Positions 41,599 to 62,445 of a DNA stretch of 64,000 nt are shown here, in pieces. Below the pieces are notes generated by a model. It had not been told where the DNA came from, did no database searches, and worked only from the letters and a program-made list of their open reading frames with translations. A program made the translations under genes and the position numbers. Numbering within the stretch: position 1 is the first letter of the stretch; each line of letters opens with the position of its first letter. The stretch spans positions 288,001 to 352,000 of the forward strand of contig CAWGBN010000002.1 of NCBI GenBank assembly GCA_963820825.1, written 5' to 3'. This stretch comes from Vulcanimicrobiota bacterium (GTDB lineage Bacteria > Vulcanimicrobiota > Vulcanimicrobiia > Vulcanimicrobiales > Vulcanimicrobiaceae).

Positions 41599-41781
41599 CG
41601 CAACCGCCTAGGCCGTAAAGTTAGTAAAGCACATCACGGTGAGATACTAGAGACGCTCTCGCAGCGTGAGGGTTTGCGGCTTCCAGCGCCTTGCGAAGCG
41701 CAAGCGCACGAGCCCCTCACCTTCAATTTCAAGATGCCTTAACTAAACCGAAGCGTCCCTGGACTGTAGTCGCGTAGGCGA

Positions 41782-42795: not shown

Positions 42796-43046
42796 CGCTG
42801 ATCCTCCTTCTGGGGCAAGTCCCATATGGAAATGATCCTGCTAGAAGTTCGGAAGCGTAGGTCCTGGGTCCCATGAACCTTTGGTCATCGAGGTGAAATA
42901 ACACCTCGAACCTCACCAATGGACTAAGATGGAGCGTGCAAGAGAGGTGTCCCGCAAGCTCATGGCCCGCAGCAACGGCATGAAGGCAGGGCTCCAGCCC
43001 CATAGAACATGCCGCCCACCTGTTATCGGCTCGGAGGAAGGCAATA

Positions 43047-43460
43047 GTGGGCAGTTTTCGGCTAGCAACAGCCTTGGGATTCGGTATTACGTTTTTAGCG
43101 GGGTGTGGAACAAATCAACAGATCGATCCATCGCAGGCGACACACACGCAGAACGTTACGCGGGTAGGCTCGACAAAACCCGATAGTACAATTTATTGGG
43201 AACCGTCCAAGATAGTTTTAAAAGGCTCCGAGCATGATAACCCCGTGCTCTATCTTCCCACCGGTCATAAATGGGGCTTGGGCAATGACACCTGCGGCAC
43301 AAGGGTATTCGCAGCGACGATCAAGCAAGGAACCTCCGGGAGCCTTACATGGTACGAGTGGGATTTTCACGCCACAGCGTCGGGTCCGTTCCGGTGCGTC
43401 TACGTCGCCCATGATCGGGTCACAAAGGAGAATGGTAGGCTAATCGTCATCGCTCGATAA
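43047..43460 (+). CDS. Small lipoprotein
   Basis: RBS GGAGG, GTG start, lipobox LAGC. Confidence 0.65.
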   Translation: MGSFRLATALGFGITFLAGCGTNQQIDPSQATHTQNVTRVGSTKPDSTIYWEPSKIVLKGSEHDNPVLYLPTGHKWGLGNDTCGTRVFAATIKQGTSGSLTWYEWDFHATASGPFRCVYVAHDRVTKENGRLIVIAR

Positions 43461-43555
43461 GCAAAAGCGGCGTTAAGATTCCAAAAAGAATTCGCAAAAT
43501 TGCGGGCCCTTTTCTCATCGGGACATCGCTAACAAAGCATAAATTGAGATTTTTG

Positions 43556-43603
43556 AACGGGCCTTTGTTTATTGGCTCCCACTGCTGGACTCGAACCAGC
43601 GAC
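43556..43603 (-). repeat. att remnant: half hairpin plus variant tRNA 3' end
   Basis: aacgggcctttgtttattggctcccactgctggactcgaaccagcgac. Confidence 0.75.
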
Positions 43604-43892
43604 GCGCAGGCAGGTGGCCGCTCGGTCGCTCAGAAAAGACTGGGCATAGGGACTGCGTGATTCGGTCCTGAGCTGACGCACTACACCTCAACCAGAACGT
43701 TCTCCAGAGCGGGTTTTCGCGTCCTAAAGAACGCGATGGAGGGTATTCTTATGTCAAAGCAACATTGTGCGCTCGCGCCGATCCTGTTTGCTCTATTGCT
43801 ACAAGCATGCGCGGGTCCAACCGGCGGCCTCGAGTCTACTTCGTCATCCCGAAACGCTTGGGGCGCTAATCAGATTCCGTCAACTTCTCAAA

Positions 43893-44005
43893 AATAAAGG
43901 CCCATTACGCAACGGGCCTTTATTCATTGGCCCCGGATGCTGGACTCGTTCTTCGACTCGCGCCTCCTGCGCTCTGCTCAGAATGACGGACCCGCTGATT
44001 AACAG
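43893..44005 (-). repeat. att remnant: hairpin plus tRNA-Asn 3' half interrupted by a 40-nt insert
   Basis: tggccccggatgctggactcg [43949-43988] gacccgctgattaacag. Confidence 0.8.
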
Positions 44006-44025
44006 AAACTCAGCCATGGCGAGGT

Positions 44026-45048
44026 TTATTGAATCGCGATGCCTCCCGGGGAATCGAGCTTCGTCCTCGCGCCCTTAATCGTACGAATCGGCTCGACGTT
44101 GCCTCCGGTGCCGGGAGCATACACTGCTATGATGGGACCGCCGTTGACGACGTAGACGTTCTCGCTTGCATCGACTGCAACGCCGGCAGGATTGCTAAGC
44201 TTCGTTCTTCTGCCGTGGATTATCCAACTCGGCGCGACGTTCCCGTGCGCGCCGACTGGGAACGATGTAACGCAGTTGCAGAGCGCGCCTGCTGTGTAGA
44301 TGCTTCCGCCGCCCACGGCGACTTGCTCGTTATCGTAGAGACGCGTTCGGTGGCCGCCGATTGTTTGTATAGGAGCGACGTTGCCGGTCGCGCCGGCGGA
44401 GTAGACGGTGATGGTTTGGCTGTTGAAGTTGGGAACGTAGATATTGTTGCTCGTATCCAACGCGAGAGCGTACGGGACGTCGAGCCCGGTATTGGAGCCG
44501 GTGATCGTGTTGACCGGGGCGACGTTGCCGGTCGCGCCGGCGGAGTAGACGGTGATGGCCCCCTGCCCGCTTGGGCCACCAGCTCCGTTAGTGACGTAGA
44601 GGTTCTCTGATGAGTCCAGCGCAACGCCAATGATGTAGTTCATGGTGGTATTGGAGCCGGCGATTGTGCGGATCGGGCTGACGTTCCCGTTCGAGCCCGC
44701 GGCATAGACCGTGACGGAATCGTTGAACTCGCCGTTCACGTTGGCGACGTAGATGTTGCCGCTCGCATCGAGGCCGACATCGGTTGGATCGATCAGTCCC
44801 GTCCTACTGCCGCTGATCGTCTGTATCGGCTTGACGTTGCCGGTTGCGCCGATCGGATAGACGGTTACGGCGTTGCTTCCGGTATTCGCGACATACAGAC
44901 ACGGACACGGTGAGGTGCTCCTCTTTCCCATGAAGTGGTGCTGTTGAGGAACGGGGTCCGATGGGGATAGCGTATCGCTCATCCCGCCGCACGCGGCCAA
45001 GAGCGCTGCCGTAATGCACGCTCCCATCACGCTGCACAGATATCTCAT
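44026..45048 (-). CDS. NHL-repeat lipoprotein (CPCLxV family)
   Basis: RBS AGGAGG, lipobox LAAC, TSPCPCLYVAN, NHL repeats. Confidence 0.85.
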   Translation of the reverse strand: MRYLCSVMGACITAALLAACGGMSDTLSPSDPVPQQHHFMGKRSTSPCPCLYVANTGSNAVTVYPIGATGNVKPIQTISGSRTGLIDPTDVGLDASGNIYVANVNGEFNDSVTVYAAGSNGNVSPIRTIAGSNTTMNYIIGVALDSSENLYVTNGAGGPSGQGAITVYSAGATGNVAPVNTITGSNTGLDVPYALALDTSNNIYVPNFNSQTITVYSAGATGNVAPIQTIGGHRTRLYDNEQVAVGGGSIYTAGALCNCVTSFPVGAHGNVAPSWIIHGRRTKLSNPAGVAVDASENVYVVNGGPIIAVYAPGTGGNVEPIRTIKGARTKLDSPGGIAIQ

Positions 45049-45396
45049 TCCCGACCTCCTTTCAGAAGTAACGAGCTACGCCTCAAACCTTGGCTTGGCG
45101 CCGCCCTCGAGACGTGCCCGATCAGGTTCGATCCGACGCTCAGAGAACACCCAATAGCCCCGGTTGTTAGCGGAGGCAACTAGTATACAGCTAAAGGCTG
45201 CCCGCCCCTGCCGGCAGCGCGTCCCCAAACTTTGCCGTCGCCGCGGTGGACACCGTGTCCACCGGGAAACAGCGAGGTCCAGTTCACCAAGCCCATTCGC
45301 TGGGTCACACCGTAGTCGGTGACGATTCGGTCGCGTTCCGCGAGAAGGTCGGCGATGACATCGTCGCCGGTACGATCCCGGCTGCGGAAATACGCC

Positions 45397-45461
45397 CTTA
45401 GGCTGCACATTGCCGCACCAAGACAAAGGCCCGCTTCACGAACGGGCCTTCTGATTAACAG
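45397..45461 (-). repeat. att remnant: arm repeat, hairpin and anticodon-side core, with an internal deletion
   Basis: cttaggctgcacattgccgcaccaagacaaaggcccgcttc...cgggcctt ctgattaacag aligns to 63652-63759. Confidence 0.8.
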
Positions 45462-45660
45462 CATCGCAAACTACGCACGCATCCGCTGCTGGGAGCGGCG
45501 AAGGCATGTGGCGACATTTGCCCACAGGAAGCCGTCGAGTAAACGTTGTGGATGGGCACCCGCGCCCGGGCAAAGGCGCTCGCCGGATAATCGCGAATCG
45601 CGCAAATGGCAGGAATCTCCGTCACGAAACACGAGACGCGGAGATTCAAGGGAGGCTTTT

Positions 45661-46860
45661 ATGCGATTGGAGCTTCGTCGTACGGCACTCCTATGCTGCT
45701 TGGTGGTCTCAGGGTGCTCGCACCCTTCGGGCTCGACGCCGGCGTTGCCGCCGAGCCTCGACCAGCGCGCGTTGGCGCGCACGACGGCGTTACCGGATAG
45801 CGCTTTTGATTCACTCTATTCGTTCGGCAAAAATCCCTACGATGGCAGCCAGCCCACGTTCCTCGTACCGTACAACGGGAAGCTCTACGGTACGACCTGC
45901 TGCGGCAGCCCTGGAGGTGAGGGCACCGTCTTCAGCCTCACGCCCGACGGCAAGGAGACGATTCTTCACACCTTTATGGGAAGCGACGGCGGCGTACCAA
46001 ATGGACCGCTGCTCAACGCCGGCGGGGTCTTTTATGGAACCGTCAGTTCGGGGGGAGGGCCGAGCAGTCTCGGCGCCGTGTTCAGCATCGACACCGACGG
46101 AAACTTCAACGTCGTCCGCGCGTTCCAAGGCGGCTCGAACGACGGCCTTCAGCCGTACGGCGGACTCGTCGAGTTAGACGGCACGCTCTACGGCACCACG
46201 CTCGGGGGCGGCGCTAATGGAGACGGCACCGTGTACGGCATCACCCCTCAAGGAGTCGAGCATCTGGTCCATTCGTTTAACGGTTCCGACGGCCAAGAGC
46301 CGCTTTCAACGCTGATCGTCGTCAACGGCGACCTGTACGGTACAACCCTTACCGGAGGCAAGTTCGGCGGCGGAACAATTTTTCGCGTTACCACCGCCGG
46401 CAAAGTGAAGGTGCTGCATAACTTTGGAAGAGGCAACGACGGCAACGCGCCATATTTCGGCGCGTTGGTCGACGTTGACGGCACGCTGGTCGGGACGACG
46501 ATTATGGGCGGCAGAAAAGGCGTCGGTACGATCTTCGAGAGCACTCTCGACGGCACGGAGAGCGTGCTCTATAGTTTTCCCGGTACGCCCGCAAAGGGCT
46601 GCGAGCCATACGCCGGACTCATCGAGTTCAACGGCACGCTGTATGGCACCACCGTCGGCGGATCGGGTCCGGGCTGCAGCGGCCACGGTACGGTGTATCA
46701 ATACGTGCCGAGCGGCGGTGTGATGACACTTCGCAAATTTCCCGGCGGGAACGGCGGCGCTGCCCCTGTCGGCTTGACGTCAATGGGTGGAAGTATTTAT
46801 GGAGTGACGCTTGGAGGCGGCCGTTACGGGCAAGGACTGTTTTATTCCGTGACTCCGTAG
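45661..46860 (+). CDS. GloVer-type repeat lipoprotein
   Basis: RBS GGAGG, ATG 45661, lipobox VSGC, seven G.LYGTT repeats. Confidence 0.85.
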   Translation: MRLELRRTALLCCLVVSGCSHPSGSTPALPPSLDQRALARTTALPDSAFDSLYSFGKNPYDGSQPTFLVPYNGKLYGTTCCGSPGGEGTVFSLTPDGKETILHTFMGSDGGVPNGPLLNAGGVFYGTVSSGGGPSSLGAVFSIDTDGNFNVVRAFQGGSNDGLQPYGGLVELDGTLYGTTLGGGANGDGTVYGITPQGVEHLVHSFNGSDGQEPLSTLIVVNGDLYGTTLTGGKFGGGTIFRVTTAGKVKVLHNFGRGNDGNAPYFGALVDVDGTLVGTTIMGGRKGVGTIFESTLDGTESVLYSFPGTPAKGCEPYAGLIEFNGTLYGTTVGGSGPGCSGHGTVYQYVPSGGVMTLRKFPGGNGGAAPVGLTSMGGSIYGVTLGGGRYGQGLFYSVTP

Positions 46861-46902
46861 CGCTTTGAGCGGCCAGTACGAGTTCCGGCGCCCGGAAAGT
46901 GC

Positions 46903-49711
46903 TTAGAAGGCGAGGGCTGCCGCTACGGCTTGATCTTCGTTCCAGGCAGCGCCTTCAGCCATGAGCTTTGCAAGCTGGTCGTCGCCGAGCGCGTCGCGCA
47001 GTGCAGGGAGCATCTTATCGCGCTCTTGCCGTTCGGTGTGCTGCCGCAACGCTTCGATTCCATCCAAACGCGCATCGACGTAGCCTAGAAGCCGCGCAGC
47101 GCCGAGCCGATCGCCGCGCACGCGCTCCTCATCGTCGGCCCGGCGTAGCGCGGCGGTCGCTGCGAGATGCTGCAGACCCCATAATACGCCGGCCTCCCAT
47201 TGCGTGTCGCGTGCGGCTGCGAGCCCATCTCGGGCGGAAACGCGAGCGTCGTCGTAGCGTTCGAGCGCAGATCAGGTATGCCGCAAGTGTTGCACAGCGA
47301 AATCGCTGCGCCGAGTTTATGATTGAAGGTGCGATAGGTTGCGAGTGCCTCGTTCTCCAGTCGAAGGGCCTCGACGGCATTGCCCTCGTGAAACTCGGCT
47401 TCGGCTAGATTTCCCGCAATGTGCGAGCATACGCGCTCTGCGCCAACGGAGCGGAACATCGCCAATGCCTCGGCAAAGAGCGGCCGCGCTCCAGCCAGGT
47501 CGCCGGCGTGGTTGCGTGCGACCGCAATGCTTTGCAAGATATCTGCGATAACGCTGCGCACTCCAACTGCTCGCGCCTCCTTCAGCGCCGAGGCCAGCAT
47601 GTTCTCGCCTTCTTCGATGTCGCCGAGATCGACGAGCGCGCGGCCGAGGAGGTGTCGGGCCTGCGCAACGCGCAGGGGATCGTCAAGCTCGCTGTAGAGC
47701 GCCAGGGCGCGTTCTGCTCGCTCGCGAGCCGTCTTCCGTTGAGCGAGTGCGTAGCGATCGCCGCTTCGGCACAGATCGAGTGCGGCCTCGACCGAGGCCG
47801 GCATCGCGGTCGGCGGAGAGATCACGCGCGGCCCGAATCCACCGCTGTCCTTCCGCCGCAGCGAAGCGCGTCCACACCGGCCGGAGCGCCGCCGCCAGCC
47901 GTCGGCCGAGCAGCACGTCGCCCTGCGCTCCGAAGCGCCCAGGTGAGCGCCGCTCGGAAGTTCTCCAGCTCCGGCTCGGCGCGAGCAAGCCACGCGCGCT
48001 CGGGCGTCGTTTCAAAAATGCTATAGAGTTCTTCGCCGAGCGCGAGAATTGCAGCCGCGTGCAGCCGCGCGACGGCGGCATCCTCTCCCGCCTCGGCGAG
48101 GCGTTCGCGCCCATACTGCCGCATCGACTCGAGGAGCCGATAGCGCATTCCGCCTTCCGTTTCTTCCGCATGCACCAACGACTTGTCGACGAGCGACGAG
48201 AGCAGGTCGAGGATCTTCCCACGACTCGATTGCGTCTTCTGCGGCTTGGCTCGTCGGCGCTAACGGCGCCGGCCGTTTCGAGCGTCCACCCTCCGACGAA
48301 GATCGCCAGCCGCCGGAACAGCCTCTGCTCGTTCGGTGAGAGCAGATCGTAGCTCCAGTCTATCAGCGCGCGCATCGTCTGCTGACGCGGCACCGCCGTG
48401 CGGCTGCCCGCCGGTCAGCACGCGAAAACGCTCGTCGAGTTTCCGAGCCAGTTGTCGCGGCGCCAACACCTTTATTCGAGCCGCCGCCAGTTCGATCGCC
48501 AGCGCGATGCCGTCGAGGCGCCGGCAGATCTCCGCAACGGTTGGTGCGCTTTCATCGCTTCAACTCGAACTTCGCGTCGGATGCAGCGGCGCGCTGCGCA
48601 AAGAGCGCGACGGCCCCATAGCGCAGAGCGTCTTCCGCCGTGAGCCCATCGCTTTGCGCCGGAAAAGCCAGCGACGGCATGTGATAAACGTGCTCGCCGC
48701 CGATGCGCAGCGGCTCACGGCTGGTCGCCATTAACCGCACGCCGGGAGCGCCGCGCAAGATCGTATTCGCGATCTTTGCGACCTCGTCGATCACGTGCTC
48801 GCAGTTGTCGAGAAGTAGCAGCAGATTCTTGCTCTCCAGATAGCGCAGGAGGGTCTCGAGCACGGGACGTCCCGGCTGCTCGTGCAAACCCAGCGCCGTC
48901 GCGATCGTGCTCGGCGACCAGACTCGCATCGTTCGTCGATGCCAGCTCGACGAACCACACGCCATCGCCCGAACGATCGAGCAAATCCGCACCGACTTGG
49001 AGTGCGACGCGCGTCTTACCCACGCCGCCGGTGCCGACGAGCGTCACCAAGGCGTGCTCACGTATCAGCCGCTCGACCTCGGCCAGCACCTCGTCACGCC
49101 CAATGAGCGACGTAAGCTGACGCGGCAGGTTGTTCGGCATCGATTGGAGCGACCGCAGCGGTGGAAACGTTTGGGCTAGGCCCGGAGCGACGAGTTGCCA
49201 AACGCGCTCCGGTTGGGCGAGATCCGCAAGCCTGTGCTCGCCCAAATCGCACAACTCCGACGCGTTCGGGCATTAGACCGCGCAACAGCAACGCGGTTGC
49301 GCCGGAGAAGAGGACTTGGCCGCCGTGCGCCGTCGCTAACAGCCGTGCCACACGGTTCACGACCGGCCCAAAGTAGTCGCCGTCGCGCTCGTCGGTCGCG
49401 CCGCTGTGCAGGGCCATGCGAACCTGTAGGCCACCGATTGCGCTCCAATCCTCGTCTGAGAGTTCACGCTGCGCATCGATTGCCGCGGCAACTGCATCCG
49501 TCGCACGCCAGAACGCCGCGCAACACGCATCACCGACCGTCTTGAACACGTGACCGCCGTGCCTTTCGATCGCGGCGCGCAGCAGTTCGTCGTGGCGGCG
49601 CAACGCTGGCGCCATCGCGTCGCGTCGCTCTTCCCAACGCCGCGTGCTTCCCTCGATGTCGGTAAAGAGCAGCGTTACCGTCCCCGTCGGAATTGGAGCC
49701 GCCCGTGCCAT
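46903..49711 (-). pseudogene. Adenylate/guanylate cyclase + NB-ARC/STAND + TPR protein, multiply frameshifted
   Basis: [60 protein letters not shown] across several ORF fragments. Confidence 0.8.
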
Positions 49712-49936
49712 CCCTGATAGTTCAAAATCTACGCGGGGCGCGCCTTGCCCCGCGCTGGGGGGAACCGAGGAAGCAAATCCCGACCGTGTGGGGCCGGGCC
49801 GGGAGTCGAATCAGCGCTCGGGGAATCCGGCAGATACCGTCCGCTACTGAAAAGTGTTATTCTGTCTGCGATGGATCGGCAGTGGCTAGCTGCGCTCGAG
49901 TGACGATCCGAACGTCCAGCTCGTAATAGCCATTAA

Positions 49937-50218
49937 ATGGTTGCAAGAGCCGACTCACGATTGCTACGTCGATCGCCGAGAAAGCCTGCGGCTTTGCGCG
50001 CACGACCAGGCCGGGATTTGGCCGGCCTCTACGACCTGCGTCACACGGCCATCGAGAATCTCGTCGCCTCGGGAGTGCCGATGGATGTGATGCACGTTCT
50101 TGCCGGTCACGCGAACGCAGACGACGCTCCGGCACACAGCAAGCCCAGCGAGGAGCGCCGTCGCGCAGCCGTCGATTCGGTCGGCAAATGGCTCTCCGAG
50201 CGCACGGTCGCAAAATGA
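49937..50218 (+). pseudogene. Tyrosine integrase C-terminal remnant
   Basis: LYDLRHTAI..L...G.....V...LAGH (HxxR-like and LGH boxes); TTLRH in an adjacent frame; ends 100 nt before an att core. Confidence 0.75.
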
Positions 50219-50226
50219 GGACGGTT

Positions 50227-50463
50227 GCTCTACGGTCGCTCTACGGCGCGCACTCGGCAGGAGAGCACAAAAGAGCAACCCCCGCAAAGGAGCCTTATTT
50301 TGCGGGGGCTTTTACAATCTCCGGATGCTGGACTCGAACCAGCGACCCGCTGATTAACAGAACTTTCGCAACGTCTTGGTTCCATGCGGTTTCTCGATAA
50401 CTCGCCTTCTCTGGCTCTTATGTTTCCGTGATTTCTCACCTATTGGCTGCACAATGGCTGCAC
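50227..50463. repeat. Hybrid att junction: GCTCTACGG x2, hairpin, 42-bp tRNA-Asn core (50319-50360), TGGCTGCAC x2
   Basis: Core identical to 63718-63759; 50265-50463 is a near-identical direct repeat of 52337-52535. Confidence 0.9.
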
Positions 50464-50642
50464 CTGAGCACGACGTAGCGGGGCATCGTTATGGTCCTTC
50501 TCTAAATCCAGTAGACGCCCCCACAGTGTCTGGATATGGCAGACGTCACGGCGGATCAGGAGGCAGATAGGGTCAGTTGGTTAAGCGAATCATCTAGGCG
50601 CAGGGCTAATTCTCACTTACCTTACTTACGGCATCCTTTATT

Positions 50643-50918
50643 TTGATTCCAGCCGCACGGCTGCTTTATCTCGCCGTCGCGCCGCCACAGGGTGCGCTCC
50701 TGGGCATGGTGTTGGTGACCGCGCCCCGGCCGCTCTATCCGCACTACGCGGTCGCGGCCGGTTCACTGAAAGCCGCGCTCGCTGATCAAGGAAACGCCGC
50801 CGCGCTGATGTGGATCCTCGGCGGCGCCGTCGTCTTCGGCGCGTTGCTCGTTACGCTCGGGCGCTGGGCTCGGCGCGAACGGGAACCGTCGCTTCTGCGT
50901 CGAACCGGGGCGGCCTAG
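50643..50918 (+). pseudogene. 3' fragment of a CtaG-like cytochrome c oxidase assembly gene
   Basis: RLLYL...LG..L..A..PLYPHY...ALADQ..A..LMW..G resembles the Caa3_CtaG C-terminus; no 5' part. Confidence 0.6.
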
Positions 50919-50956
50919 CTTGCGGTGCTTTGCAACTGCAGAAAGGGATCGCGATC

Positions 50957-52000
50957 GTGCGCTTTTTACACATGACGTACGCGGCTGTCTCGACGCTCGC
51001 GCTGTTTTTGATTACGGGCTGCGCGCAGGATGGTACGCAGCCGGCCATCGTCGGTCAGCAAAACCAGGTCCGAGCGAAACACACGACGTCTTCATGTCCG
51101 TGCCTGTACGTCACCAACTGGGCGGGGCAATCGATTACCGTCTACCCAGTCGGCGTTACCGGTAACGTAGCACCCATAGCAGTCATCGCCGGTCCTCAGA
51201 CCGGAATCGACCTCCCATACGGCGTCGCGTTGGATGCAAGCGGCAACATCTACGTGACAAATTTTGACTACAACTCCGTCACGATCTATGCCGCCGGTGC
51301 TAACGGCAACGTCATGCCAACCGCGACCATCATGGGCTCGAATACTAAGCTGCTCGACCCCGAGGGCATCGGCATCGATCCTAGCAACGGGAACATTTAC
51401 GTTCAGAGCTTAAACGGTCCGAGTGGCAACCCCAGCATCCTGGTCTTTGCCGCCGGTTCAAACGGCAACGTCAGCCCGGCTGAAGTAATCGAAGGTTCAA
51501 AAACGGGGCTGACCGACCCCGTCGATCTTACGTTGGACGGCGGCGCAAACATCTACGATGTCGACGTCGCCAATTTCATCAACGTCTATGCCGCAGGCAC
51601 TACCGGCAACAAAAGGCCAGCGCGCAAGATCAAAGGCGGTCTCACCAAACTGAACCTTCCCTTCGGCGTGACGGTTGACTCCAGTTTCAACGTCTACGCA
51701 GCTAACAACGGCGGCGGCGAGAGCAGTATCACCGTTTATGCCTCCGGCGCAACCGGAAATGTCGCCCCCATCCAACGCATCAAGGGTCGCAAGATTGAAC
51801 TAACAGATCTCCACGGCGTCGCCGTCGACAGTTCACGCAACATCTACGCTTCCAACGGTGCCGGCGAAGTGCGCTCCTGTTCGGGCTGCAACTTCATAGC
51901 CGTCTATGCCTCCGGCGCGACCGGCAACGTAGCGCCCATCAGGGTAATCGCGGGAACGAATACAGGTCTCGACGGTCCGAGCGGGCTCACGATTCACTAA
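50957..52000 (+). CDS. NHL-repeat lipoprotein (CPCLxV family)
   Basis: GTG start, lipobox ITGC, SSCPCLYVTN, NHL repeats. Confidence 0.85.
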   Translation: MRFLHMTYAAVSTLALFLITGCAQDGTQPAIVGQQNQVRAKHTTSSCPCLYVTNWAGQSITVYPVGVTGNVAPIAVIAGPQTGIDLPYGVALDASGNIYVTNFDYNSVTIYAAGANGNVMPTATIMGSNTKLLDPEGIGIDPSNGNIYVQSLNGPSGNPSILVFAAGSNGNVSPAEVIEGSKTGLTDPVDLTLDGGANIYDVDVANFINVYAAGTTGNKRPARKIKGGLTKLNLPFGVTVDSSFNVYAANNGGGESSITVYASGATGNVAPIQRIKGRKIELTDLHGVAVDSSRNIYASNGAGEVRSCSGCNFIAVYASGATGNVAPIRVIAGTNTGLDGPSGLTIH

Positions 52001-52299
52001 AGAATTGCGGGGCATGAAGAATAGAACTTTAGATCCGCATTTGCTGCCATTGAGTCGCTGGCCTCGCGTTCGATGCAGTTCTCGCGCGCGTGCGCGCGCG
52101 AAGCTTCTAAATCACGTAAGCTTCCTGTACGGGCTCGACGGATGGCGCCCGGTGGGAACCATGTAGAACCCCGGATTCCCGGTAAGTCGACGCCTGTGGA
52201 ACCGCAGCAAGTGAGGCAAGGATTCTCATCTCCCCTGGCGTTCTCCGAAATCGCGACGATGCGCTTAAAGGCAAAGCGCCGACTCGGCGGGGCAGTGCG

Positions 52300-52535
52300 G
52301 ACTTAGGCTGCACATGGCTGCACCCAAATCGCGACGGCACAAAAGACAAACCCCTGCAAAGGAGCCTTATTTTGCAGGGGTTTTCAAACACTCCGGATGC
52401 TGGACTCGAACCAGCGACCCGCTGATTAACAGGACTTTACAACGTCACGGTTCCATGCGGTTTCTCGACAGACTCGCCTTCTCTGGCTCTCATGTTTCCA
52501 CGATTTCTCACCTATTGGCTGCACAATGGCTGCAC
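52300..52535. repeat. attP-like junction: GGCTGCAC x2, hairpin, 42-bp tRNA-Asn core (52391-52432), TGGCTGCAC x2
   Basis: 52300-52327 identical to 63650-63677; core identical to 63718-63759. Confidence 0.9.
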
Positions 52536-52613
52536 AACAGTTCAACGAATCGAAAACCCCGCGCCCCTGGTTAACAACCAACGTAACACCGTTTTCTACG
52601 TCGCAGCTCCCAA

Positions 52614-53189
52614 TCAGGGCACAAGCCCAGGTGAAGCTGCCGCACCAGCTGGGTCAGTGATGCCGTAGCTGCTTCCTAGAGTCGAGACTAGATCGCCAGA
52701 AGGATAATCGAGGACGTCGACGGTGCTTAAATCGGCCACAAACAACAATTTGCCGTCTTTGGAAAGCGAAGGGCGATAGCAATCTTCGAAGCCCTTGTAG
52801 CGCCTATTAACGCGGTTAAATGGAGGCTTGATAAGGTCAAGCGTGCTCTTGCCCCCTGGCCTGCCTTGATCGCAAACCAGAAGCATTACCACTCCCGTCA
52901 AAGATAAGGCCCCCGGCAAAATGAAACGCCGCCCCCAGGAATATCGGCGTTGTCGAACCCGCTGGAAATTCTTTAATGCGCCGGCGCCTGTCACGTGGCT
53001 ATTGTACGAAACGTACAGGTCACCGTTTGTGTCGACGGCGACGCCCTGGGGTGCGCCGCCCACTATGTACTGACTCTTGATGCTCTGGCTGCACTGGGAA
53101 TAGCTATACACGTATCCGTACCCACCGTAATTATAGTCGGCGGCATAGACATTCCCCGAGCGATCGACCGTCACAGCGATGGGATCCAC
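52614..53189 (-). pseudogene. Beta-propeller lipoprotein-family fragment lacking its N-terminus
   Basis: VTVDRSGNVY, GVAVDTNGDLYV, VLDYPSG..V.TLG; apparent internal indels. Confidence 0.6.
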
Positions 53190-53393
53190 GACGCCCGCGT
53201 AGTAGCTGCACGACGGCGCTGAAGCACCTGGCGGAGACGTCGGCCCGAGACGTCGTCGCCGTGTAGATGCGACAGACTCGCGTTTGCGCTCTCAGGTGTT
53301 CAATAGGCGCAAGTGAGCGTCTCGTCGGGCCTGACGCGTAGCGCAAAGTCCCGACCGTCAAGCGCGACGGGTTTCGAGGTCAGCGGCCCGATT

Positions 53394-54598
53394 TTAGAAG
53401 CTATGGAGCCAGTTCTCGGTCCCGGCGGTCGTCATGCTAAATACCGTGCCGTGACCGTTGGCGCCCCCATTTACCGTAGTACCGTAGAGTACGCCGCCGA
53501 CATTTAGCAGCGTCCCCGTGGGGTTGGCGCCGTCTGGGCCGCCGAAATTATAGAGCACGTGATACGTGCCGGTCGGCGTGATAGAGAAGAATACTCCGTC
53601 ATCGTGCGTGCCACCCCTTACAGTTGTGCCGTAGAACGTATTTCCGACATCAGCTAGGCCCCCACCAGGATAATTACCATCCCATCCGCCGGCGAAAGGA
53701 TGCAGTAGCTGAAACGTTCCGGTCGTGCTGATCCTGAAAATACTGCCGTAGAGGCTGCAGTTGTCCCCAAATGCCGTCCCGTAGAGCCACTGACCATGCT
53801 TAATCATTGTTCCGGTGGGGTTATCGCCATAGCCTCCGCCGGGGAAACTGTAGAGAACCGTCTCTATCCCGGACGGGGTCAGAGAGAATATCGTTCCGCA
53901 GTCAGAGGTACCGCCGTTTTCCGTCGTTCCGTACAGCGTACCATTGTCTTTGGTCAAGCCACTCGCCGGCCCGTAGGCATCGGGAAAGTCTTGAAAACTC
54001 CAGAGCAAGCTCTCGGGACCGCCGGCGGGCATCTGAAAAACCGCCCCATAGTTCATCGATCCTCCGAACGAGGTGACACCGTAGAACGTCCCGTTTTGCA
54101 CGACCAGACTGCCGTTGTTTGGCCACTGGCCGTCGGACGGGGCACCCTGAAAACTGTGCTTCACCGTTTCGACACCGGAGGTCGTAACCCGAAAAACGGT
54201 TCCAAGATTCTGAGTGCCGCCTCCTGAGGTAGTGCCCCACAGCGCGTTGCCGCGTTGCACGAGACCTGCAGGGGGTCCCGCGCCGTCCGGTGTTCCTTGG
54301 AAGCTGTAGACTATGTTCTCTACGCCCGTCGTCGTAATGGAGAACACGCTGCCCAGGTTGTGGCTGCCTCCAGAAGACGTCGTTCCGTAGAGAACCCCTC
54401 CGACATCGATTAACCCTGCTCTCGGACTGGCTCCATCGGTCGATGGCGTCACGCGATGGTGTCCCGCAAGGGACTTCTGATCCCCACGTTCGGCCGTCCC
54501 ACATTCATACTTGTCGTCGGCGGGCCCGCATTCGAACCGCAATCGGTCAAACCAAGCCCAATCAAAACCAGCAGCACGCCTACAAGACTCTTAGCCAT
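53394..54598 (-). pseudogene. GloVer-type repeat lipoprotein, frameshifted after the signal peptide
   Basis: ATG 54598 gives MAKSLVGVLLVLIGLGLTDC; repeats lie in ORF 53394..54542 in another frame. Confidence 0.7.
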
Positions 54599-55077
54599 GC
54601 CTTTAATCCTTCCGCCGACCCCGTAGTCGGCTTAAGCTCCTAGTAGTAGCGCAGTATCTGTTCGCGTCCGGTGCTTGTAACCTTGCAAACCTCGCCGCGG
54701 CGTTCGATTGGATTCGCTCCTACTCGTCACCGGCGAAAGTCAGAGCACTCTGTATGGTTGTTGGCTCAGTGGCGCCCGCCCAATCAAGCATGAGCGGCCG
54801 TTTGAACGAGAAGTCCGATGCTACCGCAACACCATGTTGCCGATAGAAAGCGGCGCGCCGTTGATTGTCTTCCTTCAGTGGCAAAACCGCGACCTTGATC
54901 ATGAACGCTGCGTAGCGCTCCGCGCTAAGAGATGACATGTATCGAGCCTCGGCTTCTGCGTTCTCAAAACTCTGCACGTCCCTCGGTGAAATTACAAATG
55001 CGAGGACTGACGTGAGGTGAGAAAACGGCTCAAGTTGAAACTGTGAGTTCCGGGCCTCTGGCCCTAAGGAGACTCAC

Positions 55078-55374
55078 GTGAAAAAGACTCGCTTCACCGA
55101 AGCGCAGATCGTCGCGATCCTCAAAGAGCTCGACGCCGGCACGACCGCGACGGAGCTTGGTCGCCGGCACGGAATTCATGCCAATACGATCCGCCTGTGG
55201 CGCGATAAGTACGCCGGGATGCAAACCAGCGATCTGGTGCGCATGAAACAGCTCGAGGCCGAGAACACGCAGATGCGGCGAATCATCACCCGCCAAGCCC
55301 TCGAGATCGACGCCGTCAGGGAGCTGATCTCAAAAAACGGCTGGGGCCCGAGCAGCGCAAAGAAGCGGTCGTAG
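55078..55374 (+). CDS. IS3 OrfA
   Basis: KKTRFTEAQIVAILKE HTH; slippery AAAAAAC at 55332-55338. Confidence 0.85.
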   Translation: MKKTRFTEAQIVAILKELDAGTTATELGRRHGIHANTIRLWRDKYAGMQTSDLVRMKQLEAENTQMRRIITRQALEIDAVRELISKNGWGPSSAKKRS

Positions 55375-55376
55375 CG

Positions 55377-55890
55377 TTGCACACCAAGGGCCTGTCCACG
55401 TTCCGGGCTTGCGCTATCGTTGCGCAGCCCTACCGATCGCTGTTCAACAAGAAAAAGGCTGAAAAGCGCGCAGACACGCGGCTGAAGGAATGCATCGGCA
55501 AACATGCGCAGCAGCGGCCGCGGTTCGGCTGGCGCCGGCTGTTGATCCTTGCGCGCCGTGAAATACCTGGCACCGGGGAGTACCGATTTCGAAGGCTTTA
55601 TAAGGCTCTTGGGCTTCAAGTACGGCCTCGAAAGAAGCGCAAGGTCAACTACGTCCGCGGAAACGCGATTTCGACCGTTAGTCGCCCCAACGAACGGTGG
55701 TCGATCGACTTCATGCACGACAGTCTTGGGAACGGCCGGGCCTACCGTACGATGAACATCGTTGACGACTTCACGAGCGAATGCCTCGCTTTGGAGCCGG
55801 CGTTCTCGTTTGGTTCTCATGATGTGACGCGTTGCTTCGAGGAGATCGCGTTCGAACGCGGCTTGCCGGCCGCCGTGCGTTTTGACAACG
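55377..55890 (+). pseudogene. IS3 OrfB (rve) N-terminal part; continues at 57447-57523, 58899-59074 and 60348-60363
   Basis: WSIDF, IVDDFTSECL, VRFDN|GPEFTS...FIEPG|KPTQNAKIES...TPLE|YANKF*. Confidence 0.85.
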
Positions 55891-57446
55891 AGCTAAGTAC
55901 GAAAGTCAACCCCACTAGTAGGCATAACGATGCCCGTCGACAGCAAAGCCGAGCTTGCACACCCTTGCCGAGATGCCCCTCGACGACGCAATAGCTCCAA
56001 CCATGATGACACAAGGTCTCGGAAACGAGCCTTCACCGAGCTCAAAACGGAGTTTGCTGCCGATCGGGAGATCCGAGCATTATCTACGAGGTCGTAGTCG
56101 CCTCAACGGCCCAGCGAAGGGATTCTCCCGTCGTGCACCGCCGCTTCGAAATAGTGGCGGTACTCTTTTCCAGATTTGATCAAGCCGTAAGCGACGCGCG
56201 CAATCTTCGCTGCTACGGCGACATACGCTCTTCTTTTGAGATCGGCATCCAGTGGATCGCGACGAACGTAGTCGTCGTACTTTTTCCGAAACGAGTTTCG
56301 GCGCTGATTGATGGCAGCATTGGCTGCCATCCAGAAGGCCCATCGCAGTCGAGCATTGCCGCGTTTGGAGAGCTGCGGTCGGCCGCGTGACGTTCCGGAT
56401 TGCATCGTCGACAAAGAAAGGCCACAGTAGTTAAGAAATTTGCGATGGTGGCTGAAGCGGCGTAAATCTCCGCCTTCAGCGAGAACCGTTAGAGCAACAA
56501 TAGGGCCGATTCCAGGGATAGAGCGCAGGCGCTGATAATCGATGTTGTTCTCGAGTTGTGCGTCAATGAGCTCCTGAAGCTGCCGTCGAAGCTTCATGAG
56601 GCCGATGTACTGCTCAATCGCGAGTTGGAACATCTGGGCGGCCTGCGAATCCGCCGCCACTGGAATTCCCACGCTTTCCTTGGCAATTTCGTAGTAGCTG
56701 GCGACGAGACTTTGCCGAGATGTAAAATGCCCTCCCGCTGCAGTAAACCTTTTGACGAATGTCCTTTTGGTATATTGAAGGACCGTGGAAGGGCATGGCG
56801 CTATGCGCATGACCTCCAAGAACCACTCGCCGCGCGGATTGCTCAGGAAGGGCTCTGCTTCCGGGAAGTACAGCGGCAAATAGTGCGTCATCAGCGAATG
56901 GTAGGCTCGCGTCTTTCGGTCGGTGATCTGCCGATAGGTACCGAGCAGTTCCTGAAGATCTTGGTTGCCACGTTGCAGTGGATCGGCGAACACCTGCGTT
57001 GTACCGCTCTTGAGCAAATGCAGAATCACCTGCGCATCCTTCGGATCGTTTTTATCCCACGAGTTGAACAGCGCTTCTCTCGTCCGATTTGTAGCGATCG
57101 ACGATACGAAATGAACGCGGTGGCCTCGCCGGAGCAAGAAGTTCGCCAGGGGTCGGTGATAGTCTCCGGTTGGTTCCAGCGCGACCTCGCAGGGAAGATG
57201 CGGCGCCAGAATCCCTGCCAACTCGTCGAAACCTTCTTGCGTGTTTGGAACTGTCAAACGCCGGCGAATGCCGGCCTCGTCCTCCAGCAGCGCCACGTGT
57301 CGGTTTTTGGCGACGTCGATTGCGAGCCAGGCGGGCGTCGTTGGAGCAGCACGGAACTTTGCCATAGGGTCGTTGCCTCCAGCGGAGATGAGTCAGATAC
57401 ACCTCCGTTCGCCATGGGGGCAGCGCCCCGTCTTGTATGTATCACG
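55891..57446 (-). mobile_element. IS110-family element
   Basis: Removing it restores GAC AAC GGC CCA GAG of the IS3 gene; ACG core at both ends; no terminal IRs. Confidence 0.9.
56103..57365 (-). CDS. IS110-family DEDD recombinase/transposase
   Basis: AIDVAK, LEPTG, KNDPKDA, IPGIG, CGL...QSG, SKRGNARLR. Confidence 0.92.
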   Translation of the reverse strand: MAKFRAAPTTPAWLAIDVAKNRHVALLEDEAGIRRRLTVPNTQEGFDELAGILAPHLPCEVALEPTGDYHRPLANFLLRRGHRVHFVSSIATNRTREALFNSWDKNDPKDAQVILHLLKSGTTQVFADPLQRGNQDLQELLGTYRQITDRKTRAYHSLMTHYLPLYFPEAEPFLSNPRGEWFLEVMRIAPCPSTVLQYTKRTFVKRFTAAGGHFTSRQSLVASYYEIAKESVGIPVAADSQAAQMFQLAIEQYIGLMKLRRQLQELIDAQLENNIDYQRLRSIPGIGPIVALTVLAEGGDLRRFSHHRKFLNYCGLSLSTMQSGTSRGRPQLSKRGNARLRWAFWMAANAAINQRRNSFRKKYDDYVRRDPLDADLKRRAYVAVAAKIARVAYGLIKSGKEYRHYFEAAVHDGRIPSLGR

Positions 57447-57523
57447 GCCCAGAGTTTACGAGTCGCGCGATGCTGCAATGGGGTGCAGAGCAGAAAGTCC
57501 ATCTACACTTCATCGAACCCGGC

Positions 57524-58890
57524 GATTACGTCCCGGCGCGTGGTGTATGAACTGCGACCCCGACGAAGTGGGCGATCAGCTGATAACGGCCGAAAGCCTG
57601 GCGATCTGATTGTCGCTTACGGCGTTCATTCCTTCGAGCTGCATGTACCGCCGCTGCAACTGCCATTCATCGTTCTGTTCCAGCAGCAGCGCACCGACGA
57701 GTCGTACGATCGCGGCCTCGTTGGGAAAGATGCCGACGACGTCAGTCCGGCGTTTGATCTCGGCGTTGATGCGCTCGAGCGGGTTGGTTGAAGCGAGTTG
57801 TTTGCGGTGGGCTTTGGGAAAGGCCATGAAGGCGAGAACGTCTTCTTCGGAATCGTCCAACATCGCTGAGAGCTTGGGAAACTTCTCGCGGAGTTGATCG
57901 GCGACGGTGCGCCATTGTTGGTGCGCCGCCTCGGCCGTTTCTTGAGCGAACACCGTATTGATCAGCGCACGAACCATTTCTCGCTGCCCTTTGCCGGCGT
58001 GGGCTAGCGCGTTGCGCATGAAGTGCACGCGGCAGCGCTGCCACGTCGCCTTGAAGACTTTGGCGATCGCGGCTTTGAGACCGATGTGGCGAATCGGAGA
58101 TCACGAACTTGACGCCACGCAGTCCGCGCCGTCTCAGGCTTCTGAGAAACTCGCGTCCAGAACGGCTCGGCTTCGCTGGGACCCGTCGCCAAGCCTAAAA
58201 GCTCGCGCGTACCGTCGGTATTGACGCCAACGGCCAGTATTACGGCGACCGAAACGATGCGGCCCGACGCGCGCACTTTCACGTACGTCGCGTCGATCCA
58301 CAGATACGGCCAGTCGCCCTCGATCGGCCGATTGAGAAACGCTTGCACGCGCTCGTCGATCTCGCTGCACAAGCGCGAGACTGGCTCTTGGAGATCCCCG
58401 TCATCCCCAGTGCCTTCACCAGTTCGTCAACCGAGCGGGTTGAGATGCCCTGAATATACGCTTCCTGGATCACCGCCGTCAGCGCTTTCTCGGCCGTGCG
58501 ACGAGGCTCCAGGAAGCCAGGGAAATAGCTGCCCTTGCGCAGCTTAGGGATGCGCAGATCGACTGCGCCGGTGCGCGTTTCCCAGAGCCGGTCGCGATAC
58601 CCGTTGCGGCAGTTCTCGCGAGGAGCGGCTCGCTCGCCATAGGCGGCGCCGCAGAGGGCCTCCACGTCCATCTCCATGAGTTTCTGGGCGGCGAGATGAA
58701 GCATGTCGCGCACGAGATCGACGTCGGGGCCCTTTTCAGCGAGCTCCGTAAGTGCGATACTGGTCTTGGCCATTGTGGGTTCCTTTCGTCGGTAGTTTCT
58801 TTGCAAAAACAACCTTCGCCGAAAGCCACGATGGCCGCTCTCTATCCTATGAGGGCGGCCCCTTCATACACCACGCCCTGGGACACGATC
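57524..58890 (-). mobile_element. IS256-family element
   Basis: 27-bp imperfect IRs; 8-bp target duplication AACCCGGC (57516-57523 and 58891-58898). Confidence 0.9.
57576..58773 (-). pseudogene. IS256 transposase, frameshifted
   Basis: [53 protein letters not shown] across three frames. Confidence 0.85.
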
Positions 58891-59162
58891 AACCCGGCAA
58901 ACCAACGCAAAACGCCAAGATCGAATCGCTAAACGGCCCGATCCGAGACGAGCTGCTCAATGCCCACGTTTCACGACGATCTAAACGAGGCGCGGGCGCT
59001 TGCCGCAGTTGGAGAAAGGACTATAACGAGGTCCGGCCGCACTCGTCTCTCGGCGGCTTGACGCCGCTGGAGTAAGAGGTGGCCTCGGTTAGTCGGACAG
59101 CCTGATATGTGATGATTTCGCTCCCTCTGGGTCGAAAAGATCCGTGAAAAGGAGCAGTCATC

Positions 59163-59462
59163 TTGAAACGTTCTCGCCGCAACCACACGCCGGCCTTCAA
59201 GGCTAAGGTGGCGATCGCCGCGATCAAGGGCGATCAGACCGTCGCCGAGCTCGCCAAGCGCTTCGACGTCCATCCGAATTCGATCGTGCAGTGGAAAACC
59301 CAACTGCTCGAGCGAGCCGATGAAGCCTTCGATGGCGACGGACCAAAGCAGAACGGCCCCGATATCAAAGAGCTTCACGCCAAGATCGGCCAGTTAGCGC
59401 TGGAGAACGATTTTTTAGAACACGCGCTCGGACGTATCGACGGGTCGAGCGCAAAGCGATGA
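59163..59462 (+). CDS. IS3 OrfA (inner element)
   Basis: RRNHTPAFKAKVA..., KIGQLALENDFL; slippery TTTTTTA near 59411. Confidence 0.85.
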   Translation: MKRSRRNHTPAFKAKVAIAAIKGDQTVAELAKRFDVHPNSIVQWKTQLLERADEAFDGDGPKQNGPDIKELHAKIGQLALENDFLEHALGRIDGSSAKR

Positions 59463-60284
59463 TCGATCGCGACCACGCTTTGCCGCTCTCGCATCAAGCG
59501 GAGCTGCTGGACCTCTCTCGCAGCGGTCTTTACTACGGAGCCGTACCGGTCTCGGGCAGCGGATCTCGAACTCATGCGTGAGATCGATCGGCTGCACACC
59601 GACTACCCGTTCGCCGGCGCAAGAATGCTGCGCGACTTCCTGCGGCTCAGGGGCTATCGTGTCGGCCGCCGGCATATCGCGCGGCTGATGCGCCTGATGG
59701 GCATTGAAGCGCTCTATCGCAAGAAGAAAGGCACCAAGACCAATCCGGAGCACCCCGTCTTCCCCTACCTTCTTAGAAACCTCGTCATCGAACGCCCGAA
59801 TCACGTCTGGGCAGCGGATATCTCGTACATTCCGATGCGCCGCGGTTTCTTGTATTTGTTCGCGGTACTCGACTGGGCAACGCGACGGGTTCTGGCTTGG
59901 CGGCTCTCCAACAGCTTGACGACGGATTTCTGCATCGATGCCGTCGAGGAGGCGATCGCAAAGTACGGCTGTCCTGAAATCTTCAACACCGATCAAGGAT
60001 GCCAATTCACCGACAAGGATTTCGTCGGCATGCTCAAGACTACGAGATCGCGATCAGCATGGACGGCCGGGGCGCCTGGCGCGACAACGTCTTCGTCGAA
60101 CGCTTCTGGCGCTCGATTAAGTACGAAGAGGTCTATTTGCGTGCTTACGACTCTGCGAGCGAGGGTAAGCACTTCATCGGCCGCTACGATCGATTCTATA
60201 ACGCAAACCGACCGCATTCGTCGCTCGGCGGCCAAACGCCGGACGCGGTATACTTCAGTCAGGCCGACCAAAAAGGCGGCGTAA
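59459..60284 (+). CDS. IS3 OrfB (inner element) with apparent indels
   Basis: WAADISYI, FNTDQGCQF, DNVFVERFWRSIKYE. Confidence 0.8.
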
Positions 60285-60413
60285 CTGGCGGAGTCATCAC
60301 ATAACGGGTGCCGATTTCGTGTCCAAAAAACCGGCGCCACCTCTGTATGCGAACAAGTTCTAAAATGACACCTGCTCACAGTTCCTCCTTATGCTAAAGA
60401 CCACCTCACGTCA

Positions 60414-60620
60414 GAGCCGCCATCTTGTTTCCAACCAGAGCCTGGATAGGGGTAGATTGGCATAAGTGCCATGCCGCTTTGCAAAATCGCGAGTGCCTCA
60501 GTAACCGTAAGGTCGCCATCGGTCCAGCCATGATACGGTACGTAGCGTAAGCGACATTTGTACTTGCTGGCAAGCGAACTGATCCTTCCCGTGCTGAGGT
60601 TATACAGAACGCGTGTCGTT
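60414..60620 (-). pseudogene. Possible DUF1906-like gene fragment truncated by the IS3 end
   Basis: Minus frame reads LRYVP...DLTVTEA..ILQSGMALMPI...GW up to the IS boundary. Confidence 0.4.
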
Positions 60621-60739
60621 CCAGCTCAGATCTTTACGATTCCTTGAAGGTTTCACTGTAGAGTTAGCCTAACGGCTAGGCGCGTGGACGCTTTTGAGCC
60701 CCACGACTGCGTAGCGACCGATTCAGAAGGAGATTAGCT

Positions 60740-61720
60740 GTGCGATTTCATCTGCTAGCCAGCCTGGTTATCGCCGCAGCATTTGCCGGATGCTCGAGCG
60801 CGCAACTACAACGCGGAAACCCGGCGCTGCCGAGTTCGCCGTCAAAAAGCGTGCCGGCCGCCATCGGGCCGACGCCCGCGCCCATAGCGACGGCAAGTTG
60901 GGAGGACAGCATCTTTGTGGTCGACACCGGTGTCCCCGCCGTCAAGCTCTTTGCGCGCGGAACGTGGGCAGCCAATGGATCGTTCACCAATGGTGTGGCC
61001 AGTCCGTACGGCATCTGGAGTGATCAGAAATATCTCTACGTACCGAACAGTATCAACAATGGCGCGAACGTAGAGGAGTATCGCCCCGACGATACGACTC
61101 CAATTTTTACCTATACGAACGGCCTCTCGGGCAACGCGATTAATGTTTCGACTCAGGACCTTGGCGGGGTTCACTACGTGTTCGTCGTCGTTGGCAGTAC
61201 CGGCTTCGGTAACGGCTACGTTCGGCAGTTTCGTCGTGACACGAATACGGTCATAGCGACGTGCACGCCTAACGGCCAGGGGCAGTTTGGAGTTGCTGGC
61301 GTTGCGGTCGACCCCAACGGCAACGTATTTGTTTCGTACTACGGCTCCGACAGCTCTACGCACATTGTCGAGTACGTTGGGGGCCTGGGCGGATGCGCTC
61401 AAACTCCGCTGATCACGCTACCGACAGAGGGAGCAGATATGGTTCTAGATCATGCCGGTAGGCTGGTCCTTTGCGACGGTGTAAGCACCTGCGACATCAT
61501 CAATCCGCCGTATACGAGCATATCAGGGACGCTCGGCTCCGGCTTCGATGCTCCATTTTATGTTACGATAAATGCAACTAACCAACTCGCCTACGTGACC
61601 GACGGCTTAGGCGTTCACGTCCTCAGCTATCCCAGCGGCGCGCCGCTACATACAATCGGTGCTTCTGCTGGCCTACATAATCCCGTCGGCGTCGTAGATT
61701 GGTTCAACTACGGTTTTTGA
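60740..61720 (+). CDS. Beta-propeller lipoprotein
   Basis: RBS AAGGAG, lipobox FAGC, GVAVDPNGNVFV; paralog of 62446..63471. Confidence 0.8.
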   Translation: MRFHLLASLVIAAAFAGCSSAQLQRGNPALPSSPSKSVPAAIGPTPAPIATASWEDSIFVVDTGVPAVKLFARGTWAANGSFTNGVASPYGIWSDQKYLYVPNSINNGANVEEYRPDDTTPIFTYTNGLSGNAINVSTQDLGGVHYVFVVVGSTGFGNGYVRQFRRDTNTVIATCTPNGQGQFGVAGVAVDPNGNVFVSYYGSDSSTHIVEYVGGLGGCAQTPLITLPTEGADMVLDHAGRLVLCDGVSTCDIINPPYTSISGTLGSGFDAPFYVTINATNQLAYVTDGLGVHVLSYPSGAPLHTIGASAGLHNPVGVVDWFNYGF

Positions 61721-62082
61721 TCCGCCGCGGCCGTTTGCGTTGGCCAATCGAACTCGGGGCAGGCAACAATGCTGCTCCAAATGCTCTGCCGCGGCAACAC
61801 CGGCGCGCGCGAACCAAACCCGGAAGTGAGCGACGTGGAAGCGCCGCGCGACCAGAAGTGTTTCAACGTGCGCGCCCGTAGCCTCAAACTGTATAGAGCA
61901 GGGACTCCTAAAGCCTTAGAGCGTAGCCGTGCGTAGTCGCCGACGGTGCAAAAGCCCGTAAAGTACCCGCTTTTTCGGACGCCACCGGCAGCGCTGACGC
62001 CTTAGGGGCCTTAGGGCAACCAACCAGTCGCGTCGAACATCTTAGGGCGCTGATCCGTTCCGGGAGCTAGGAGGCACGGCCC

Positions 62083-62367: not shown

Positions 62368-62445
62368 CTATTGTGAGGTAGCTTTAGCTGTTAAGCAAAC
62401 AGGCGCCATTTAGGCCCCGACGCTAGCTTCTATCGGGAGTGGCTC

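Follow-up and report, generated by a model that had tools for sequence, protein, structure and literature searches.

In the attP site of phage lambda, the arm-type sites P1, P2 and P'1-3 are bound by the N-terminal domain of the tyrosine integrase, and lambda-type integrases in general bind tandem direct arm repeats flanking the core. The tandem accretion of integrative elements followed by the loss of their integrases is already well known biology. Such tandem accretion has been described for the ICESt1-related elements of streptococci (ICEs and IMEs), and the parts of that account concerned with CIMEs present them as elements that have lost their integration genes, have kept both attL and attR, and stand in tandem at the 3' end of a tRNA gene (PMC5704250). 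Tandem arrays of tDNA islands, with a crossover centred on the anticodon, are also recorded in the Islander database, which, in the portion of its description dealing with arrays, accepts members only if each has an integrase of its own (PMC4383910). In integron cassette arrays, short units, often single-gene and recombinase-free, follow one another serially at one site.

The locus described here lies in a stretch of 64,000 nucleotides (hereafter the window) from an assembly of 2,978,335 bases (2.98 Mb; G000), which is 85% complete and belongs to the phylum Eremiobacterota. Its focus is a segment of 236 bases, 52300-52535, which consists of a P arm, a core, a hairpin and a P' arm, and in which the attR of an 11-kb unit (unit 1) meets the attL of a 2-kb unit (unit 2). 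A first-pass annotation had described this segment as an attP-like junction with arm sites on both sides of a tRNA core; the order of P arm, core and P' arm is indeed present, and the core is real, being 40 bases that repeat the 3' half of tRNA-Asn(GTT) up to the anticodon loop and occur exactly at 50321, 52393 and 63720. The segment has the order of attP because two units with the same arms stand in tandem, and it resembles attP because the attR of unit 1 joins the attL of unit 2. Like lambda attP, it is a region of ~240 bp in which repeated sites unlike the core flank the core, with tandem direct sites one helical turn apart on the integrase-proximal arm. Unlike lambda attP, it is a chromosomal hybrid of the attR of one unit and the attL of the next, it carries a pair on both arms in the same orientation, its arm sites are putative, and it adjoins no integrase, such a neighbour being found only in relatives with variant arms.

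The units of this array share with CIMEs, in the features set out in PMC5704250, the retention of attL and attR without integration genes and the tandem position at the 3' end of a tRNA gene; it is because the integrase is absent from them that they resemble CIMEs. The route sketched in the same part of that account, from integration through decay to further integration, fits the array as well. They differ from CIMEs in their phylum and in that neither conjugation genes nor a live partner element are seen in G000, an integrase-bearing neighbour being present only in the relative G005, where it has different arms. With the Islander arrays, as these are characterised in PMC4383910, the locus has in common a regenerated tRNA and displaced 3' fragments that mark the ends, as well as a crossover at the anticodon loop, whereas by the acceptance rule given there its integrase-less units would be filtered out; island finders that require an integrase per unit would miss most copies. 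An integron cassette array was considered as a candidate and rejected, since no IntI, attI or attC hairpins are present, and the sites are tRNA-derived cores with arms in an array without an integrase.

The intact tRNA-Asn(GTT) gene is located at 63715-63790 on the minus strand (ARAGORN) and is adjoined by an array, 22 kb long, in which its 3' half is repeated. Its own 3' half (63720-63759) is the attL core of unit 1, and two further core copies on the minus strand are common to the attR of unit 1 and the attL of unit 2 (52393-52433) and to the attR of unit 2 and the attL of unit 3 (50321-50361). Units 1 (52434-63714) and 2 (50362-52392) have a core and an arm at each end; identical cores bound the units, and the target tRNA-Asn stands regenerated and intact. 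Read in the direction of the tRNA, the well-kept junctions show the order core, hairpin, period-10 P' pair cTTAGGCTGCACATGGCTGCAC, cargo, a 102-bp P arm that terminates in the period-11 pair TATTGGCTGCACAATGGCTGCAC, and the next core. The hairpins are of two types. That of unit 1 is of type 1, an inverted repeat on the minus strand between the tRNA end and the P' pair (63682-63707), which is 88% alike to 45425-45450 and was not flagged by the terminator scan. It is followed by the period-10 P' pair TAGGCTGCACATGGCTGCAC (63654-63673, plus strand), in which the likeness to other units begins at ACTTAGG, by ~11.1 kb of cargo (52536-63653; characterized by Pfam scan, six-frame integrase HMM and paralogy), and by the 102-bp P arm (52434-52535, plus strand) with its outermost pair GGCTGCACAATGGCTGCAC, of period 11, at 52517-52535. 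Unit 2 has a hairpin of type 2 (52345-52380, minus strand), which is terminator-like according to the terminator scan (stem 52367-52348) and is also present in the relatives G013 and G002; then come a P' pair (52304-52323, plus strand) identical to 63654-63673, ~1.8 kb of cargo (50464-52303) comprising one NHL-repeat lipoprotein gene, and a P arm (50362-50463, plus strand) with its pair at 50445-50463. We infer that the hairpin carried by each element probably terminates the regenerated tRNA.

The 3'-half copies at 45451, 43989, 43933, 43578 and 41578 are decayed. The first of them belongs to a decayed junction at 45399-45462 (plus strand), with a P' pair TAGGCTGCACATTGCCGCAC, a hairpin of type 1 and, of the core, only the 11-base anticodon-loop end; the others are older fragments on the minus strand (41578-41607, 43578-43607, 43933-43962 and 43989-44005), among which lie two NHL genes (41782-42825 and 44026-45048). 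Three ORFs (43047-43460, 43767-44078 and 38578-41489), situated among the old tRNA fragments and left of the array, have no Pfam match. A flank of the tRNA-Asn locus in G013 matches 29239-33147 of the window, but in inverted order, and for this reason synteny does not fix the left boundary of the array.

The pairs are built of the 8-mer GGCTGCAC, always on the plus strand, with starts at 50445/50456, 52306/52316, 52517/52528 and 63656/63666; the intact pairs span 50445-50463, 52306-52323, 52517-52535 and 63656-63673, and a decayed pair at 45401-45418 retains a single GGCTGCAC at 45401, followed by TGCCGCAC. All of these coordinates agree with the first-pass annotation, as does the direct orientation of the pairs, and the period of 10-11 bp and the distance of about 70-85 bp from the core that it gave can be specified further: the tRNA-proximal P' pairs have a period of 10 and the distal P pairs one of 11, and the P' pair ends 70 bp from the core while the P pair starts 84 bp from it. 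The exact identity of 52300-52327 with 63650-63677 is likewise confirmed, within a repeat family (52297-52327 and 63647-63677) that is 97% alike and has its sole mismatch before 52300. The 8-mer occurs 14 times in the window, against a mean of 2.72 in 100 shuffles (sd 1.56, largest 7), none of which reached 14 copies. As a lone word it is common, with 160 copies genome-wide, and therefore the signal is the pairing and the position rather than the word. The pair pattern GGCTGCACN{2,3}GGCTGCAC has four forward and no reverse matches in the assembly, all at att positions and at the places already named, with none scattered elsewhere; its reversed control has no match.

These arm pairs are distinct from the core and stand on both sides of it, marking the outer limits of the site. 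Our alignment of P arms comprised four sequences, two of G000 and one of each of G005 and G060, and that of P' arms comprised seven, of which three were of G000 and the others of G005, G013, G002 and the metagenome contig L060. In either alignment the similarity breaks off within 1-2 bases of where the pairs end on their outer side, giving way to unrelated DNA, which is what should be seen if the pairs are the outermost protein-binding sites of an att region. The P arms of units 1 and 2 are identical at 56/59 positions in the outer block, and the inner P arm at tRNA-Asn is identical at 18-26/44 positions across species. A joint 52433>63682 in the sequencing reads of run X1 (share 0.12) was examined as a possible sign of excision and set aside; it is uninformative on excision because it comprises only 31 letters, within a repeat. 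The contigs of X1 derive from a relative 90-95% alike.

Among the 30 ORFs scanned between 37 and 64 kb, none matches PF00589 and none of the Pfam matches belongs to a transfer-gene family. Units 1 and 2 contain no tyrosine recombinase according to Pfam or to an HMM that was built from 28 integrases of the genus and run on all six frames, nor did the HMM reveal an integrase remnant in these G000 units. Over the window, the HMM and tblastn with P0001 together yielded only 49937-50215, plus a doubtful stretch at 39869-40279 (E 0.53). The former is part of a decayed integrase C-terminus in unit 3 (49937-50218, plus strand) with the motif LYDLRHT...LAGHAN, which was found by tblastn with the integrase P0001 (E 0.17), PF00589 (E 0.0067, below the cut-off) and the genus HMM (E 0.0015). 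The P' pair of unit 3, two copies of GCTCTACGG with a period of 11 (50227-50246, plus strand), begins 9 nt past the stop of this remnant and is followed by a hairpin and then the core at 50321. As the remnant is followed by a GCTCTACGG pair of its own, unit 3 (45463-50320) belongs to a different arm class; its pair resembles the GCTACACGG pair beside an integrase of G017, and the tail of the remnant resembles the same G017 locus. The proposal that at least three units share one integrase specificity holds only in part: two units are both-armed, the third is represented only by the decayed P' arm at 45399-45418, and the unit that intervenes, with its GCTCTACGG arms and decayed integrase, departs from it.

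Outside the array, G000 has five PF00589 genes, three of which are followed by pairs, all of other motifs. The idea that the pair might sit beside an intact integrase was not borne out: no exact GGCTGCAC arm adjoins one in the 91 genomes of the genus, the species-representative genomes, the JGI metagenomes or IMG/VR. The P' 20-mer has 3 loci in the genome collection, none beyond those otherwise found here, and 10 in the metagenomes, of which 9 are low-GC chance matches and the relevant one (L060) is without an integrase. In viral contigs, the pair pattern has 55 loci, none with the tRNA-Asn loop, and P0001 has one distant locus. Finally, tblastn with P0001 and the HMM over six frames detected no integrase remnants in the units on L014, L015, L016, L020 and L060.

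Exact pairs occur in 6 of the 91 genomes of the genus, and those of five are either homologous P arms or located at a tRNA-Asn core or fragment. When up to 3 mismatches are allowed, 11 of 21 matches adjoin tRNA-Asn cores or fragments, including those in G067, G093 and G065 and two in G084; as the total is no higher than that of the reversed control, only these 11 were used, and among them only the unit of G084 contains an integrase. The 5' flank of the tRNA is syntenic in G005, G013, G002 and L060, and in other species the same arms flank unrelated cargo. In G013, G067 and G093, the P' pair adjoins the sole copy of the core 17-mer, no second element end was found, and the pair represents either a scar or flanking sequence.

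In integrases of the genus that target tRNA genes, the stop codon is commonly a TAG with which a tandem pair begins. At a match of at least 7/8, tandem pairs follow the integrase stop at 14 of 28 loci, compared with 108 of 560 shuffles, and exact 8-mer pairs start within 20 nt of the stop at 7 of the 28. Furthermore, integrase-bearing elements at tRNA-Asn carry a word of their own on both arms at about the same distances, namely GGCTGTAA in G005, GGCTACAC in G017, GGGACAAC in G074, TGCCCTAC in G075 and G094, and GGGCGTCA in G084. The GGCTGCAC pairs thus appear to behave as arm-type integrase sites, as had been suggested, their edges ending the similarity and integrase-bearing relatives having like pairs in the same positions.

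The unit of G084 is 17 kb long, stands at tRNA-Asn, has decayed forms of both arms, and contains an intact integrase of 425 aa, P0002, which is located 3.2 kb from its P' pair and has PF00589 and SAM-like domains with ~115 residues ahead of them. The closest relatives of P0002 are the integrases of G023, G066 and G008 (56-57% identical; 50-55% in the N-terminal region and 46% in the core-binding region). These three target the proline dehydrogenase gene (PF01619), not tRNA-Asn, and their stop codon, TAG, begins TAGGCAGTACATGGCGGTAC-like pairs with a period of 10, which are identical to the GGCTGCAC P' pair at 13-16/20 positions; even the nearest integrase-linked pairs differ from the pair in G000 at 4/20 positions or more. 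The elements of this clade in G023, G008 and G066 (L156, L157, L030 and L163) are inserted beside the 5' end of the proline dehydrogenase gene.

The element of G066 (attL on L030, attR on L163) allows the comparison of whole arms. It resembles the units at tRNA-Asn in having a homologous outer P arm, identical to theirs at 42-48/59 columns (44/59 with 52434-52535), a P' pair formed by the TAG stop and GGCNGNAC with a period of 10, and a P pair with a period of 11 and an AAT spacer, its distal arm reading GGCAGTACAATGGCGGTAC. It differs in its core, ACTTCTATTTTCTC at both ends, on the 5' side of the proline dehydrogenase gene, and in its arm words, GGCAGTAC and GGCGGTAC; its core-proximal P arm agrees with the P arms at tRNA-Asn at 11-15/44 positions, which is the chance level. 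One arm module is thus common to elements with different target cores. In G093, a near-identical P' pair, TAGGCTGCACATGGCGGTAC, adjoins tRNA-Asn directly after a frame ending in AEAFDRLL, and a C-terminal motif ADAFDR[LV] is found in only three proteins, all of the P0002 clade, among the 30 integrases listed; the match of this apparent integrase tail covers 8 residues only and has an E of 1.1 by itself.

It is our considered view, held with good confidence, that 52300-52535 is a seam between tandem integrative elements, in which the GGCTGCAC pairs are the predicted outermost arm sites of a lambda-type integrase of the P0002 clade, and that the units are integrase-less and CIME-like. Most likely, the GGCTGCAC words would serve for the docking of an integrase apparently lost from this genome, and it is the relatives that make the arm-site reading of the pairs well supported. 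According to this seam model, site-specific recombination in the anticodon loop of tRNA-Asn would have added one element at a time, successive insertions hitting either the tRNA or a resident attL or attR and thereby building the array. Since each element would have arrived with a copy of the tRNA 3' half, a seam would run from the P arm of the tRNA-proximal unit through core and hairpin to the P' arm of the unit that follows. The responsible integrase would have had an extra N-terminal arm-binding region and have belonged with P0002 of G084 and the integrases of G066, G008 and G023, in a scheme where the arm module may mark the integrase clade and the core set the target. The integrase gene would later have been lost from 50362-52392 and 52434-63714 with both att ends kept, and both units would now be non-autonomous, excising or moving only if a matching integrase were supplied, none being seen in the assembly. 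The seam maps att sites with precision, arm-site words and site limits included, in mobile elements of a soil phylum that is uncultured and from which hardly any such elements have been described; in a literature search on integrases and tRNA islands of Eremiobacterota, none of the matches listed contained the name of the phylum.

The units might instead be live non-autonomous cassettes that are moved now by a matching integrase provided in trans, its source being incoming elements or the 15% of the genome missing from the assembly. Copies without an integrase are far more numerous than those with one (G084 only, among the 11 tRNA-Asn matches of 21), and the pairs are invariant across species while the cargo is 49% identical and the inner P arm agrees at 18-26/44 positions; together, the dominance of integrase-less copies and the invariance of the pairs hint at use, and the decayed junctions at 41578-45462 illustrate the state of neglected sites. 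However, an integrase of the P0002 clade (E <= 1e-30) was not found in G000, G002 or G060, the matches in G005 and G013 are distant ones only, at 32-38% identity, and the PF00589 genes elsewhere in G000 that are followed by pairs have other motifs. Neither an empty site nor an excised form was seen, in data too sparse for this to carry weight. The supply of the integrase in trans that had been proposed is thus not borne out in G000 or in the four other genomes with exact pairs, and we regard present-day mobilization as rather unlikely. A broader conjecture, which we offer as speculative and doubtful, is that the tRNA-Asn of Ca. Cybelea may be a dock for integrase-less, mostly one-gene lipoprotein units, that the arms of attL and attR may be under selection, that rare integrases of the P0002 clade may shuffle these units in trans, and that the arm module may be swappable between cores such as tRNA-Asn and the proline dehydrogenase gene. 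Such shuffling would be like that of integron cassettes, yet would proceed via lambda-type arm sites.

The pairs are conserved, and another kind of protein might bind them, for example a transcription factor for tRNA-Asn or the lipoprotein genes. This is very improbable, however, as in three of four cases the flanking ORFs are upstream of the pairs, which occur nowhere else in the genome, their counterparts in relatives overlap integrase stop codons, and no promoter-like site was found in 50150-52650 or 63400-64000.

Returning to the seam between integrative elements, the cargo of its units was said to be unrelated, and in this respect the first-pass annotation needs correction, as several units carry paralogous NHL-like lipoprotein genes. 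Unit 2 has an ORF at 50810-52000 (plus strand; likely start 50972) that matches Pfam NHL (E 1.4e-06) and has a lipobox-like N-terminus, LITGC. Unit 1 contains two NHL-like lipoprotein paralogues (60740-61720 and 62446-63471), an NHL fragment (52614-53189), a repeat protein (53394-54542), and an IS110-type transposase (56103-57365) together with pieces of a Mutator-family transposase and rve fragments. Between the gene adjacent to P' in unit 1 and the sole long ORF of a 2.7-kb unit in G005 the identity is 49%, and the remaining NHL genes of the array are 41-46% identical to one another. With NHL proteins at 41-49% and att parts at 86-100%, the cargo is therefore related but old. Although the paralogous NHL genes in several units could suggest that the array arose by segmental duplication or unequal crossing-over of the DNA downstream of tRNA-Asn, with the pairs as duplicated flank, this is largely refuted and barely credible, as the paralogues are 41-53% identical whereas the att parts are 86-100% alike, the copies always begin at the anticodon loop and lose similarity at the pairs on both sides, a decayed integrase lies inside the array, and the same arms surround unrelated cargo in other species.

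The IS remnants of unit 1 are clustered at 55377-60284, where the IS110-type transposase looks intact, the Mutator-family transposase is split (57576-58028 and 58279-58812), and rve/HTH_21 fragments occupy 55377-55994 and 59574-60284. In unit 3, pieces of a guanylate-cyclase/AAA/TPR (STAND-like) gene form several ORFs at 47085-49711 (minus strand); a 745-aa paralogue at 29239-31479 (minus strand) is 81% identical to a gene of G013 that is located 3.7 kb from its tRNA-Asn, in inverted order. The T stem of tRNA-Asn is GCTGG/CCAGC in G000 and in all its good core copies, and GTTGG/CCAAC, a compensated pair, in the sister species (L014, L015, L016 and L060); the units of G000 were therefore not recently imported from those species.

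Across the genus, tRNA-Asn is an insertion hot spot with at least five classes of arm word, and integrases that target it fall in at least four places of a quick tree of 40 integrases. Two or more core copies are present on one contig in 10 of the 91 genomes. On contig C16 of G005 (L019:2067-3466 and L014:3108-3260), a 14-kb element at tRNA-Asn encodes P0001, an intact integrase of 411 aa, and has GGCTGTAA-type pairs of period 12 on both arms, its TAG stop lying within the first P' site; this element stands in tandem with the 2.7-kb integrase-less GGCTGCAC unit. In G022, G065 and G085 (L121, L122 and L127), pairs of tRNA-Asn cores enclose further units of 1.3-1.9 kb that lack an integrase and carry other small genes, one of them with a lipobox-like N-terminus, and the P arm of the G085 unit contains GGCTACAC twice.
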